A stretch of DNA of 64,000 bases from Nitrosopumilus sp. Lineage in GTDB: Archaea > Thermoproteota > Nitrososphaeria > Nitrososphaerales > Nitrosopumilaceae. The position numbers and the translations under genes are program-made. Position 1 is the first letter of the stretch. Each line of letters starts with the position of its first letter. Positions 5,439 to 43,942 of this stretch are shown here, in pieces. Location: the NCBI GenBank assembly GCA_965205425.1, contig CBDBGZ010000009.1, forward strand, positions 320,001 through 384,000. Direction: 5' to 3'. The notes beneath the pieces are model-generated. The model was not told the origin of the DNA. It saw nothing but the letters and a program-made list of their open reading frames with translations, and ran no database searches.

Positions 5439-5540
5439 TGGCGCCGGGAGGGAGATTTGAACTCCCGTTCCCTTGCGAGAACGCGCTTTATGGTTAAACA
5501 ATTTCCAGGCGCGCGCCCTACCAGGCTAGGCGACCCCGGC
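5439..5540 (-). tRNA. tRNA-Ser(GGA) with ~15-nt intron at 37/38, CCA encoded
   Basis: GCCGGGG/CCCGGC acceptor stem, CGCGC-CTGGAA[intron]A-GCGCG anticodon arm, long variable arm, GTTCAAATC T-loop. Confidence 0.93.
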
Positions 5541-33360: not shown

Positions 33361-33526
33361 GAAAATATGATGTGATGAGGAACTATAAAGAATTATTCTT
33401 TTTTTGGAACTGGTAAGTTAGCGGGGCATAGCTACAAATCTTATTGCTGGTAAGTGTCGAGGCTTTTAGAAACATTAGGCATTATCACCAAATTTACTTT
33501 ATTAGTGATAATTTCAATAAATATCT

Positions 33527-34078
33527 GTGGGTAAGAAAGAATTACAGGAAAGAGATACTTGGCAAGATAAAAGTGGCCCAAAAGGTGAAGTTGCAGAGGG
33601 TAAATTTGAGATTGTATTTTTACGTGAATTTACAGGTAAGGGTTATGAAATAAGAGCAAAGCCTAAAGAGTTAAGAAAAATATACTCTGAAAAACCACCT
33701 CATGGTGTAATTATTGATTATGCCATAACTAACACTAAAACTCATAAAACATTGTATGTTGAGATCAAAAGACAAGATGGTTATGTTCCTGGGGAAACAG
33801 AACCTAATGCAGGTCGAGGAAATGCACATGAAAGATCATGTAAGTTTTTCACACCAGGATTATTGAAAATCATGCGAAAGTTTGGGAAATTAGATGGTGA
33901 TGTATTGCCTTTTTGGGTTGTATATCAAGGTCGTATTGCACGTGATACAAAACGAACCAATGAGATTACATATTGGTTTGACAAACATAAATCACATTTT
34001 TTCTTATGGAAAAATCCATCAAACACACAATCATTGGTTAATCATTTTAATAAAAATTTGAAACAACTTTTAGATTAG
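33527..34078 (+). CDS. Type II restriction endonuclease, MunI-like (predicted C^AATTG)
   Basis: EIKRQDG, AGRGNAHERSCK.FTPGLLK, LPFWVV and LV.HFN match my recollection of MunI along the whole length; GTG start. Confidence 0.85.
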   Translation: MGKKELQERDTWQDKSGPKGEVAEGKFEIVFLREFTGKGYEIRAKPKELRKIYSEKPPHGVIIDYAITNTKTHKTLYVEIKRQDGYVPGETEPNAGRGNAHERSCKFFTPGLLKIMRKFGKLDGDVLPFWVVYQGRIARDTKRTNEITYWFDKHKSHFFLWKNPSNTQSLVNHFNKNLKQLLD

Positions 34079-34728
34079 GAATTATTCAATACAATATCTA
34101 ATCCCCATGAAGACCAACCTCTAACTTTTTTCCTTGCAAACAATTCGATACGTTTCTGATTTGGAAACATCTTTTCTATTCCGTCCATGACTTCAATTGG
34201 TTTTTCACTGTGTCCTTTTCTTGGAGATTTAATTAATTGTTTAACATTTCTTGCTCCTCTAGGTGTTGGTATTCTTCCATGTTTGAATAATAAACATAAT
34301 TCACAGTTTGAAAGAGTGTATTTGCCAGGATTATGATTCATTTTATCCCATACAAAAGCTACAGTTCTATACTCAAAACCCCATGCCCTGCCTAATTCAA
34401 TAGCTTGTGATAGGTGAGGGTTTGTAGTCCACATGAATAATAGACAATCGTCATTTGTTATCTTGTCTATTGGAATTTCCATCATTTCATTTGTCTTCAT
34501 AGTAGGATACTTGAAACTAGCTGTGCTAATATACAGTGATTTTGATGTATCATACTGTAATTTTTTATTGTAATCCCAGGGTGGGTCTGCATAAATAATA
34601 TCAAATTTCTTGTTGGGTAGTTTTGGATATAACATATCTTTCGGTAATGTGCTGTGTTTTGTTCTTCTCTTAACATCTTCATTGTAAATTGAATAACCGC
34701 TAGGCTTCATTACTTGTTTACTCATCAT
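34075..34728 (-). CDS. MT-A70-family N6-adenine DNA methyltransferase (M.MunI-like)
   Basis: IYADPPW, LFMW, FVWDK, HSEKP, IELFAR; convergent with the REase. Confidence 0.9.
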   Translation of the reverse strand: MMSKQVMKPSGYSIYNEDVKRRTKHSTLPKDMLYPKLPNKKFDIIYADPPWDYNKKLQYDTSKSLYISTASFKYPTMKTNEMMEIPIDKITNDDCLLFMWTTNPHLSQAIELGRAWGFEYRTVAFVWDKMNHNPGKYTLSNCELCLLFKHGRIPTPRGARNVKQLIKSPRKGHSEKPIEVMDGIEKMFPNQKRIELFARKKVRGWSSWGLDIVLNNS

Positions 34729-34940
34729 TCATTACCTTTTTTTCTTGCATTTTTCTTAGAACTCATACTTTTTTGTTTCATCGGAGTAATTATAATTTTC
34801 ATTTCGTTATCGATCACTTCCAAGTTCCATTCCATTTGATCTTTCACTGATAAGCCAAACTGTCTAACGATACTGGCAGGAATTGTAACTCGTAATGAAT
34901 TTGATTTATTTGCCAAAACTAAATTTGTTGTCTCAACCAT
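34725..34940 (-). CDS. AbrB/MazE/SpoVT-type DNA-binding protein
   Basis: SLRVTIPASIVRQFGLSVKDQMEW swapped-hairpin signature. Confidence 0.85.
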   Translation of the reverse strand: MVETTNLVLANKSNSLRVTIPASIVRQFGLSVKDQMEWNLEVIDNEMKIIITPMKQKSMSSKKNARKKGNE

Positions 34941-35013
34941 AACCTATTTCATAACCTGTCATAATAATAACCTATCTCTTGACCTAATGTATAAATAACC
35001 TAAATGATAACCT
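34939..35013. promoter_or_regulatory. Phased ATAACCT repeat array in the divergent abrB/transposase promoter region
   Basis: ATAACCT at 34939, 34951, 34967, 34995, 35007 plus variant TTGACCT at 34979. Confidence 0.7.
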
Positions 35014-35018
35014 ATTCT

Positions 35019-36143
35019 ATGAATCAAAGAGAAATTAGAGGAAAACAAATAGCAGAAAAACAAAATCAAATTATCAAAATAGATGAAACTCATTACAAAG
35101 TAAATTCTCAAAGTAGAAACAAACAACATGACGTTATCTCTTTAGAATCTGGTTGGAGTTGTAGTTGTGAGGATAGATTTTTCAGGAAAACTTGTTGTAA
35201 GCACATTCATGCAGTAGAAATTTCATTAAATATTCATCAAAAGGTAAAAGATGATGTTATAATTTCAGAAGTGGAAATTGATTGTTGTAAATACTGTAAA
35301 TCACAAAATATTGTAAAACGTGGCATACGAAAAAACAAGAGTGGCAATATCCAAGTGTTTAGTTGTAAGAACTGCACACGTAAGTTCTCAATTAACTTAG
35401 GCTTTGAGGGAATGAGAGCAACACCTGATCAAATCACAATGGCAATGAATCTATACTTTAACGGTGAATCATCAAGGAAGGTAAAACAATCCTTGGTTCT
35501 TACTGGTGTTAAAATATCTCATGTTACCATTCAAAACTGGATAAAGAAATACGTCTCACTAATGGAAAAATACCTTTACAAGATAACTCCACAAGTAGGT
35601 GAGCAATGGAGAACAGACGAATTATATCTAAAAATCAAGGGTGATAAAAAATACCTCTTTGCAATGCTAGATTCAGAGACTAGATTTTGGCTGTCTCAAA
35701 TGGTATCAGAACATAAGGGAAATGATGATGTATCTCCAATGTTTGCAGATGCCAAAAAGAAAGCAAAGAAAGTTCCAACTACACTAATTTCTGATGGAGC
35801 TGCAAACTTTCATCATGCTTGGAAAGAACAATACAAAGCCAAAAACTTTCTACATAAAAATACAGAACATCACAGGCACATACACCTATCAGGCGATATG
35901 AACAACAACCAGATGGAATCCTTTAACTCAAACACTCTAAGAGCAAGAGAGAAGGTCGTTAGAGGAATCAAAAAAGATGATTCCTCGATAATCAAGGGTA
36001 TGCAAATTCATCATAATTTCATAAGACCACATCAAGGGTTGAATGGAGATACACCAGCAGACAGATCAGGCATTATTATACAAGGAGATAATAAATGGAA
36101 AACCATAATTCAAAATGCTAGTAACGCCACGAGAGGGATTTGA
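35019..36143 (+). CDS. IS6/IS240-type DDE transposase with N-terminal SWIM and Zn-ribbon domains
   Basis: CSC...CKHIHAV (SWIM); CKYC...CKNC; WRTDE, ISDG, NNNQMES. Confidence 0.88.
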   Translation: MNQREIRGKQIAEKQNQIIKIDETHYKVNSQSRNKQHDVISLESGWSCSCEDRFFRKTCCKHIHAVEISLNIHQKVKDDVIISEVEIDCCKYCKSQNIVKRGIRKNKSGNIQVFSCKNCTRKFSINLGFEGMRATPDQITMAMNLYFNGESSRKVKQSLVLTGVKISHVTIQNWIKKYVSLMEKYLYKITPQVGEQWRTDELYLKIKGDKKYLFAMLDSETRFWLSQMVSEHKGNDDVSPMFADAKKKAKKVPTTLISDGAANFHHAWKEQYKAKNFLHKNTEHHRHIHLSGDMNNNQMESFNSNTLRAREKVVRGIKKDDSSIIKGMQIHHNFIRPHQGLNGDTPADRSGIIIQGDNKWKTIIQNASNATRGI

Positions 36144-36209
36144 ACCCACGTACCCGCAGGGCAGAAGTTTAGGAAACTCCCTGAATTGACCAGACTATCA
36201 GATCGTGAC
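36125..36209 (-). tRNA. Atypical class II tRNA-like gene: serine-like body, anticodon CCT (Arg)
   Basis: GTCACGA/TCGTGGC acceptor, G73, GG in D-loop, GGAGT-TTCCTAA-ACTTC anticodon arm, long variable arm, GTTCAAATCC; one T-stem mismatch. Confidence 0.75.
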
Positions 36210-36490
36210 ATTAGTTAAAATTTTGAAAAGAATAAAAATCCACCTTATCGCCCTGCGGGAGTGATAAGGCTTCATCTTTAGTCTTAATTGTGATTGCAAA
36301 TCACAGGCAAAGACAGAAACCACAAGGCTTGTAATTATAATACTTTAAACATCTAAATAAATAATTTTGGATCTTAGCATCAGTAGGCATGATTAATTTC
36401 TAAAAGCCTCGACACTTACCAGCAATAAGATTTGTAGCTATGCCCCGCTAACTTACCAGTTCCCTTTTTTTAATGTTACAGTTTTTGAGG

Positions 36491-43828: not shown

Positions 43829-43916
43829 AGCCCGATAGTCTAGTGGTCAAGGATTCTGCCCTCTGGATCTCAAGAGTGGATAGGCGGGGACGGCAGTTCG
43901 AATCTGCCTCGGGCTA
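43829..43916 (+). tRNA. tRNA-Gln(CTG) with ~15-nt intron at 37/38
   Basis: AGCCCGA/TCGGGCT acceptor, CTGCC-CTCTGG[intron]A-GGCGG, GTTCGAATC. Confidence 0.92.
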
Positions 43917-43942
43917 CCTAAAAAATTTCTAAAATAAAATTA

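Follow-up and report, generated by a model that had tools for sequence, protein, structure and literature searches.

A transposon-borne, serine-type tRNA-like gene with an arginine anticodon and a co-varying leader hairpin in Nitrosopumilus

Introduction

What does a tRNA-like gene with the body of a serine tRNA and the anticodon of an arginine tRNA do on a transposon? The question is raised by a class II (long-arm) tRNA-like gene on the minus strand at 36125..36209 of the window, i.e., of the whole stretch of 64,000 nucleotides analysed here, which is C9:320001-384000 of the host genome of Nitrosopumilus sp. (G000; 2.196 Mb in 9 contigs, 33% G+C). Comparison with seven relatives places the gene in a small family of RNA modules, each of two parts, which are carried by IS6-like insertion sequences (ISs) and other mobile elements of the Nitrosopumilaceae. 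The first part is a class II tRNA related to tRNA-Ser(GCU), whose anticodon has moved off serine, and the second part a hairpin encoded upstream, the loop of which is complementary to the variable arm of the tRNA. As a reading of the whole we favour, tentatively, an element-borne, serine-charged tRNA that would be gated by its antisense leader, that is, a self-controlled mistranslation or addiction module; we consider this plausible, though short of probable. Labels beginning with L and G denote the loci and genomes compared.

The tRNA-like gene and its leader hairpin

Read on the minus strand, positions 36209..36125 give GTCACGA-TC-TGAT-AGTCTGGTCAA-TTCA-G-GGAGT-TTCCTAA-ACTTC-TGCCCTGCGGGTAC-GTGGG-TTCAAAT-CCCTC-TCGTGGC-G (85 nt). 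The sequence folds into a cloverleaf with a 7-bp acceptor stem (GTCACGA/TCGTGGC, including one U.G pair), G73 at 36125, a 5-bp anticodon stem and a 7-nt anticodon loop (UUCCUAA) with U33, a purine at position 37 and the anticodon CCU at 36173-36171. The variable region TGCCCTGCGGGTAC has 14 nt, and the T arm GTGGG-TTCAAAT-CCCTC consists of a 5-bp stem, with a U50.U64 mismatch, and a loop of the TTCRAAT type. The D stem TGAT/TTCA has three pairs and a U.U (13:22), and the D loop has 11 nt. ARAGORN calls a tRNA-Arg(cct) at 36124-36210 on the same strand, in agreement with the first-pass annotation, which had been made from the sequence alone and had described an 85-nt minus-strand cloverleaf with a CCU anticodon and a long arm.

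About 50 nt 5' of this gene, the leader reads GCCTTATC-ACTCCCGCAGGGC-GATAAGG, followed by GGATTTTTATT. Its hairpin (36243..36270, minus strand) has the stem GCCTTATC/GATAAGG, and its loop CCCGCAGGGC (36259-36250) matches the variable-arm core GCCCTGCGGG (36162-36153) as an exact reverse complement. Besides the hairpin loop and the variable arm, the genome has no further occurrence of this 10-mer, and no meaningful other target site for it or for its 9-mers was found in these 2.2 Mb. Both RNAalifold, applied to four copies, and a single-sequence fold of a 151-nt stretch pick the helix between loop and arm.

The complementarity holds in all eight loci, i.e., in the window and in the seven relatives, which come from other Nitrosopumilaceae genomes, from one metagenome contig (L064) and from two IMG/VR contigs (L084 and L085), and it does so with differing letters. 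Leader loop and variable arm read CCTGTCGGGC and GCCCGACAGG in L064, CCTATCGGGC and GCCCGATAGG in G353, CCGCATGGC and GCCATGCGG in G371, CCGTCAGGC and GCCTGACGG in L084, CCGGAAGGC and GCCTTCCGG in L085, GTCAGGC and GCCTGAC in G195, and ACTGGAATG and CATTCCAGT in G014. Two kinds of long-arm tRNA served as controls: an upstream complement of the variable arm of at least 8 nt was found in none of 14 loci of GAA-type long-arm tRNAs and in none of 18 loci of ordinary tRNA-Ser(GCU). The longest complement to any part of the GAA-type tRNAs is one of 8 nt, to a part other than the variable arm.

Two further elements accompany the hairpin. The T-run GATTTTTATT (36231..36240, minus strand), approximately 22-31 nt 5' of the tRNA, is largely conserved in the six aligned modules, and from inspection by eye we infer that it may be an oligo-T terminator of a hairpin RNA, a TATA box of the tRNA gene, or both. 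Further upstream, at 36281..36305 on the minus strand, the alignments contain the palindrome TGTGATTTGCAATCACA and then AATTAAGA. Judged by eye, these could be an operator and a TATA-like element, and together a regulated promoter from which a hairpin RNA would be transcribed. The palindrome region resembles the sequence 5' of the transposase genes at the left end of the G195 IS.

Relatives of the module

A BLAST search with the module in 151 genomes of the genus gave full copies only in G353 (L067, 77% module identity) and G371 (L068, 76%), besides a disrupted copy in G195 (L048) and, in G385, a remnant that consists of the hairpin alone. Among the matches listed, the rest come from the T arm of ordinary tRNAs or from short stretches, rich in A+T for the most part, between hairpin and tRNA. 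An exact 20-mer scan of metagenome contigs gave three matches, of which only L064 is a module, since L063 is internal to an open reading frame (ORF) and the similarity of L065 is confined to the T arm and the 3' strand of the acceptor stem; an exact 20-mer scan of a viral collection gave no match. L084 and L085, two further intact copies, were obtained by scanning IMG/VR with the leader motif. A covariance model of the module (R1) was run on 151 family genomes and scored the window copy with 154 bits, followed by a locus in G014 with 79.8 bits. The search mostly recovered ordinary class II tRNAs at 60-80 bits, and among the matches listed, beyond which there are 1,266 more, the G014 locus is the only relative. 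ARAGORN found no tRNA at the 3' end of the transposase in 35 transposase-related loci, and a regular-expression scan of 85 loci found the hairpin motif only where the module, its remnant or the hairpin was already known.

The anticodons of the eight loci are UCU in three (G353, L084 and L085), CCU in two (the window and G371), and once each UCG (G195), CAU (L064) and UAU (G014). ARAGORN names the G353 and G371 copies tRNA-Arg tct and tRNA-Arg cct. In L064 the T stem is fully paired (GAGGG/CCCTC). The locus of G014, a member of another genus (L087:1500-1652, minus strand), has the same design, but its hairpin stem is another one (GCCCTGA/TCAGGGC), and the complement between loop and arm has 9 nt. 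In G195 the copy is interrupted: at L048:8373-8483 a 74-nt tandem duplication, with 37-nt repeats that are 97% identical, repeats the anticodon arm and the variable arm; it may be a disruption or an insert resembling an intron.

A 365-nt contig of low depth from run X3 (record 14) matches only the tRNA-like gene (window 36125-36212), with six differences and unrelated flanks, which suggests a further variant copy in that sample.

Covariation of the two parts

Six intact copies, namely that of the window and five homologues, were aligned, and a structure that combines cloverleaf, leader hairpin and the helix between loop and arm was evaluated over 38 pairs and 225 cells. The paired cells amount to 98.2%, as opposed to a mean of 89.6% in shuffles, none of 500 of which reached the observed value, and to 40-49% with slid partners; 12 of the 38 pairs are changed on both sides (0/500 shuffles), although these shuffle statistics overstate independence because the sequences form few close pairs. 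Double changes were seen at 4 of 7 pairs in the acceptor stem, 2 of 4 in the D stem and 1 of 5 in the anticodon stem, while the T stem has none at its 5 pairs. The cloverleaf is more than chance. The stem of the leader hairpin is nearly invariant (0 of 7), and the helix of leader loop and variable arm has double changes at 5 of 10 pairs and no unpaired cell. Even in the closest pair, the window and L064, there are three mirrored differences in loop and arm. Covariation and anticodon variation among homologues, by which the first-pass annotation had proposed to check the gene, can both be seen in this family.

Serine-type body and arginine anticodon

The body of the family is that of a serine tRNA. 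The variable arm has the layout of the host tRNA-Ser genes (1 nt, a stem-loop of 3-4 bp, 2 nt), G73 is present in all copies, four copies have the 9-nt D loop AGYYYGGTA, and the T arm is of the serine type. Outside G000, the best 19 loci of model R1 comprise the G014 relative and 18 ordinary tRNA-Ser(GCU) genes, and the nearest host tRNAs by pairwise identity are the long-arm GAA tRNAs and the serine tRNAs. A serine anticodon occurs in none of the eight loci. An arginine anticodon, i.e., C35 with U36 or G36, occurs in the window and in six of the eight loci overall. The combination of serine-type body and arginine CCU anticodon claimed in the first-pass annotation is thus borne out, with the addition that the host has a separate, normal tRNA-Arg(CCU).

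The tRNA-Arg genes of the host comprise UCU, UCG and GCG, which were found by ARAGORN, and CCU at G000:C9:675463-675555 (Rfam 50.2 bits, arginine-type T arm), which was missed by ARAGORN and whose D arm contains an insertion that we read as an intron. The UCU, UCG and CCU genes share the T arm GGGATCGAAGCCC, and the GCG gene has a T arm of the GGTTCGAATCC type; all four have a short variable region, and three of the four have G73. The window copy has neither the short class I variable loop nor the T arm GGGATCGAAGCCC. With regard to codon usage, AGG accounts for 3.6 per 1000 codons in the host genome as opposed to 24.0 for AGA, and it occurs 5 times in the four ORFs of the transposon (854 codons, stops included). 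With a tRNA-Arg(CCU) of its own and with AGG as a minor codon, the host has no need of the window tRNA as a decoder. Codon supplementation was rejected on account of this host gene and because AGG is neither common nor notably enriched in the element.

According to the part of a review considered here (PMC7609411), the variable arm and G73 are identity elements of seryl-tRNA synthetase (SerRS). If SerRS ignores the anticodon and reads G73 and the long arm, the tRNA would be serylated; the window tRNA would then read AGG as serine, and its relatives AGA, CGA or AUA. The diversity of anticodons (Arg, Met/Ile, Ile) on one conserved body would fit such anticodon-blind charging, as reported for the allo-tRNAs of bacteria (PMC5389517). 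The hairpin RNA might be part of a leader and act in cis, or it might be a small transcript that ends at a terminator and act in trans, and in either form it would mask the variable arm and gate the folding or charging of the tRNA. Such gating of folding or serylation appears to be the most economical mechanism because the variable arm and G73 are the elements by which SerRS recognises its substrate. The pair could then behave as an RNA-only toxin and antidote or as a tightly autoregulated mistranslation module, and would in this way aid the persistence of the element. Spelled out as an RNA-only addiction or self-control module, in which a stable, serine-accepting tRNA 'toxin' misreads abundant codons beginning with A (AGA, AGG, AUA) as serine, a short, co-evolving hairpin 'antidote' blocks charging by pairing with the variable arm, and the rapidly changing loop/arm pair confers on each variant of the element a specificity of its own, the proposal seems to us rather unlikely.

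Several points weigh against the favoured reading of a serine-charged, leader-gated tRNA. The module is rare, with 4 of 151 genomes of the genus, and only six intact sequences, falling into few close pairs, could be aligned. The promoter and terminator were assigned by eye, and the complementarity of loop and arm could persist at the DNA level as an inverted repeat. As the window copy fails the Rfam cut-off and the L064 and G195 copies give no match, some copies may be decaying. Finally, the anticodon changes within the close family stay in the arginine box (UCU, CCU, UCG), and these anticodons, the shared anticodon loops and G73 would equally fit charging by arginyl-tRNA synthetase (ArgRS) and a harmless role.

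The last point leads to the first alternative, a class II tRNA-Arg that is charged by ArgRS via C35 and U36 or G36, the leader only tuning its maturation. This we consider unlikely, and no more readily accept the related proposal that the elements carry the gene to supply or replace arginine tRNAs, for example where tRNA-Arg of the host is in short supply or is cut by an anticodon nuclease. Besides the arginine anticodons, it is favoured by the anticodon loops CUUCUAA, CUCCUAA and CUUCGAA, which are identical to those of host tRNA-Arg genes, by G73, which is common to three of the four, and by the fact that four copies score as good tRNAs. However, the body, the T arm and the variable arm are serine-like and differ from the arginine T arms of the host, the family includes CAU and UAU members, the host already possesses tRNA-Arg genes with CCU, UCU, UCG and GCG, and AGG is rare and not enriched in the genes of the element. 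In addition, the D loop has U instead of A at the position of A20, which is an identity element in tRNA-Arg.

The IS6-like transposon and its cargo slot

The module is located in an IS6-like transposon of 3,058 bp with perfect (100%) terminal inverted repeats (IRs) of 67 bp. A repeat search places the left IR, which starts with GGAACTGG, at 33406..33472 on the plus strand and the right IR at 36397..36463 on the minus strand. Both are flanked by CTTTTTTT (33398-33405 and 36464-36471), from which the length of the element and its 8-bp target duplication follow. The transposase (35004..36143, plus strand, 379 aa) has an N-terminal Cys/His-rich region and belongs to the IS6-type DDE enzymes (Pfam PF13610 DDE_Tnp_IS240, E 4.9e-15). 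Members of the IS6 family (IS26/IS240 type) have a DDE transposase, inverted repeats starting with GG and an 8-bp target duplication. The element shares all three features with the family, and differs from it in its size of 3.06 kb, the 67-bp IRs, the long Cys/His-rich extension of the transposase, and the presence of a restriction-modification (RM) system and an RNA module. Relatives of the transposase were found in 35 loci from Nitrosopumilaceae, Bathyarchaeia and other archaeal genomes, by protein similarity mainly in records of Nitrosopumilus and the Nitrosopumilaceae.

The tRNA-like gene, its leader and the promoter region make up a block of 279 bp at 36123..36401 (minus strand), which is missing from diverged IS copies. 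A contig of run X1 joins 36122 directly to 36402, and in contigs of public runs diverged IS relatives stop matching at 36122-36124; from the joint without module it is concluded that 36123-36401 is a cargo block that the basic IS does not have. The last 19 nt of the transposase ORF run antisense to the 3' end of the tRNA-like gene and add the tail NATRGI, which is not conserved: the conserved end in the relatives is ...IIQNAS, to which NATRGI is an addition in the window.

Among the eight loci, five adjoin an IS6-like transposase or its remnant, namely the window, G353, G371, L084 and G014. In the latter four the module lies on the same strand as the transposase and downstream of it, the transposase of G014 being a fragment. 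The order on one strand in G371, i.e., transposase remnant, module, T-run and right IR, looks like the native arrangement, and the module is inverted in the window. The G195 module is located in another IS of 1,481 bp, which has 27-bp IRs, an rve-type orfAB and IS6-like ends. L085 has a divergent tyrosine integrase as its neighbour and no IS6 transposase nearby, and among the ORFs of L064, which were read by eye, there is no mobile gene within 3.5 kb.

From these comparisons it can also be seen what remains of the first-pass annotation as a whole. Its placement of the gene on a transposon stands, given the perfect IRs and the duplication on both flanks, as do the serine-type body and the arginine anticodon, and the 19-bp antisense overlap with the end of the transposase is correct for ORF 35004-36143. 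Antisense control of the transposase, which it had considered, does not stand as a conserved function: the module lies on the same strand in four loci, diverged IS copies do without it, and the overlap concerns only the non-conserved tail. The U-U mismatch of the T stem, which it had taken as a possible sign of a pseudogene, fails likewise and is discussed below. It had further considered an insertion of serine at AGG, which could be toxic or antiviral, and had not noted the co-varying hairpin upstream of the gene.

The fixed slot between the stop codon of the transposase and the right IR in G371, and the position before an IR-like end in L084, are in keeping with a second alternative, a structured RNA of the IS without a role in translation. 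The tRNA shape would then be a processing site for RNase P and RNase Z or a protein scaffold, which is an improbable explanation in our view; the accompanying suggestion that the leader-to-arm helix is the functional core, for the control of transposase or transposition or for specificity or incompatibility between elements, is hardly easier to accept. In its favour, no other part changes as fast or is as well compensated as this helix, in which the window and L064 differ at three mirrored positions, the promoter palindrome has its counterpart 5' of the transposase in the G195 IS, and the window and L064 copies retain the pairing while their tRNA features erode. However, the anticodon loop is canonical in all copies (7 nt, U33, A37), and all four stems of the cloverleaf are kept, three of them with compensatory changes. 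Furthermore, the orientation to the transposase is variable, L064 and L085 have no IS6 transposase nearby, and complementarity to another genomic site was not found.

The genome contains a second IS copy at C9:294200-295900, which is 69% identical and in which an inward-facing ORF of 75 aa takes the place of the RNA module between the transposase and the right IR; this slot appears to serve for cargo in general. On another contig, at G000:C7:96090-96228, 139 bp correspond to the right IR and its adjoining sequence (window 36325-36463) with 95.7% identity, without the module, and may represent either a solo end or the terminus of a related element.

Erosion of the window copy

The Rfam tRNA model (RF00005) gives the window copy 18.6 bits (E 0.36 genome-wide) in a local match covering model positions 6-65, which is below the gathering cut-off of 29. 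It is the lowest-scoring of 61 Rfam tRNA matches in the genome, the remaining 60 reaching at least 40.5 bits. Four relatives score well above the cut-off (L085 50.9, L068 44.9, L067 44.5 and L084 43.9 bits), while the L064 and G195 copies have no Rfam tRNA match at E<=0.01. Because these four reach 43.9-50.9 bits, the family is regarded as one of proper tRNAs with an eroded branch formed by the window and L064. Together with L064, the window copy is the most eroded form of the family, and with its weakened D stem, 11-nt D loop and low score its competence as a decoder is least certain.

A third alternative takes this further and regards the window copy as a decaying pseudogene, and the match of loop and arm as a leftover DNA inverted repeat that arose when part of the tRNA gene was duplicated in inverted orientation. 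The low score, the U.U in both the D and T stems, the anticodon that differs from that of the closest relative L064 (CCU as opposed to CAU), and the interrupted copy in G195 are consistent with it, and the leader sequence 5' of the loop partly mirrors the 5' half of the T arm, as expected of an old inverted duplication. However, neutral decay does not account for the double changes by which the window and L064 differ at three mirrored positions, nor for a complementarity that is kept in eight of eight loci with differing sequences. The same T-stem mismatch U50.U64 (GTGGG/CCCTC) is present in the host's own, working tRNA-Ser(GCU) (G000:C9:971771-971857) and is therefore not a sign of decay. In the D stem, the window and L064 share the same pairs, with changes on both sides at 2 of 4 pairs relative to the other four copies. 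The locus is also unchanged in public DNA contigs, the tRNA-like copy being identical in those of 4 runs from 3 studies. We therefore regard decay as a quite unlikely account.

DNA inversion is ranked low because the window transposon has no further recombinase ORF of at least 50 aa besides the DDE transposase (the L064 ORFs were inspected by eye, not scanned), bearing in mind that DNA contigs of 4 runs cannot reveal transcripts or rare inversions. A C/D-box guide RNA was rejected as well: the SNORD12-like Rfam alignment over 36202-36288 is weak (14.4 bits, E 7.7), and no D box is conserved in the relatives.

Comparison with known systems

The closest parallel to a serine-type tRNA with a foreign anticodon is provided by the allo-tRNAs of bacteria. 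In the parts of the report considered here, these are described as long-arm, serine-type tRNAs with diverse non-serine anticodons, including those for the arginine codons AGA/AGG and UAU, which often lie beside toxin-antitoxin or transposon-related genes, are in some cases pseudogenes, and are proposed to be missense suppressors or to be unused in translation (Mukai et al., 2017; PMC5389517). The archaeal family resembles them in its serine-type elements, its varied non-serine anticodons and its context of IS, integrase and RM genes. However, allo-tRNAs are defined there by a 12-bp acceptor branch with 8/4 or 9/3 geometry and are reported from bacteria (PMC5389517), whereas all copies of the archaeal family have the canonical 7/5 geometry, for which reason the family does not consist of allo-tRNAs in the defined sense. 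It also has the co-varying upstream hairpin, which those parts of the report do not mention for allo-tRNAs.

Compared with the tRNA-Ser(GCU) of the Nitrosopumilaceae, the family shares G73, the 9-nt AGYYYGGTA D loop (in four copies), the layout of the variable arm and the T arm GGGTTCRAATCCCTC, in this host including U50.U64. It differs in the anticodons UCU, CCU, UCG, CAU and UAU, in a shorter variable stem of 3-4 bp, in the other acceptor and anticodon stems, and in its location on mobile elements with a leader hairpin, a hairpin that none of the 18 tRNA-Ser(GCU) loci has. The nev-tRNAs of nematodes, reportedly described by Hamashima and colleagues in 2016, are said to be tolerated long-arm tRNAs whose anticodon does not match the identity of the body; they are eukaryotic and of the leucine type. 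The long arm and the mismatch between anticodon and body recur in the archaeal family, but the nev-tRNAs are said to be neither on mobile elements nor preceded by an antisense leader.

The hairpin itself recalls antisense stem-loop control systems such as RNA I/RNA II of ColE1, CopA/CopT of R1, RNA-OUT of IS10 and type I toxin-antitoxin pairs. As a rule, the two RNAs of such a pair derive from opposite strands of one stretch of DNA, which makes them complementary automatically, and the target is an mRNA or a primer. A short stem-loop, a loop complementary to a structured RNA of the same element and a fast-changing pairing sequence are common to both. In contrast, the partners of the module are separate, adjacent and on the same strand and must co-evolve, and the target is the variable arm of a tRNA.

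Full-text searches of open-access papers and bioRxiv gave no description of such a module. A survey of the mobile elements of Thaumarchaeota mentions tRNA genes, in the parts considered here, solely as targets of integration (PMC6563490). Long-arm tRNAs in which anticodon and body disagree are known from bacteria and nematodes, and an archaeal counterpart with canonical geometry is added here. The tRNA-like gene occupies a defined cargo slot of an IS, and its co-varying antisense partner is directed against the variable arm. An RNA gene in place of a protein gene would be rare as cargo of an IS. The module thus provides a concrete, testable way into the question of how a mistranslating tRNA might be tolerated, regulated or exploited by a cell or by a selfish element.

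Neighbouring genes and other tRNA genes

Upstream of the transposase, the transposon encodes a MunI-like restriction enzyme (33527-34078, plus strand; Pfam PF11407, 3.3e-49), an MT-A70 methyltransferase (34075-34728, minus strand; PF05063, 3.6e-25) and a small AbrB/MazE-fold protein (34725-34940, minus strand; PF04014, 1.9e-08). The RM set looks complete and of type II, and the AbrB/MazE-fold protein may be its controller. The window also contains two ordinary host tRNA genes, each with an intron of 15 nt according to ARAGORN, namely tRNA-Ser(GGA) at 5439-5540 and tRNA-Gln(CUG) at 43829-43918.

A second accessory family of long-arm tRNAs is present in the genome at G000:C8:120793-120882 (L051), C9:254932-255019 (L059) and C9:901281-901367 (L062). 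All 14 copies found of this long-arm GAA (Phe) family have the anticodon GAA, with G73 and the acceptor strand GTCAGGG or GTCAGGA, and they occur in 9 of 401 Nitrosopumilaceae genomes. They score 48.7-56.9 bits, have compensatory changes in the variable-arm stem and are not preceded by an antisense leader. A canonical tRNA-Phe is present in the host as well. Furthermore, there are odd tRNAs of 71 nt with low G+C content and unusual anticodon loops at C4:165846-165916 and 166055-166125 and at C9:254430-254500 and 454070-454140, which ARAGORN labels Leu aag, Phe gaa and Asp gtc. One of them is 430 bp away from a long-arm GAA tRNA, and these clusters look like tRNA sets of mobile elements or proviruses.

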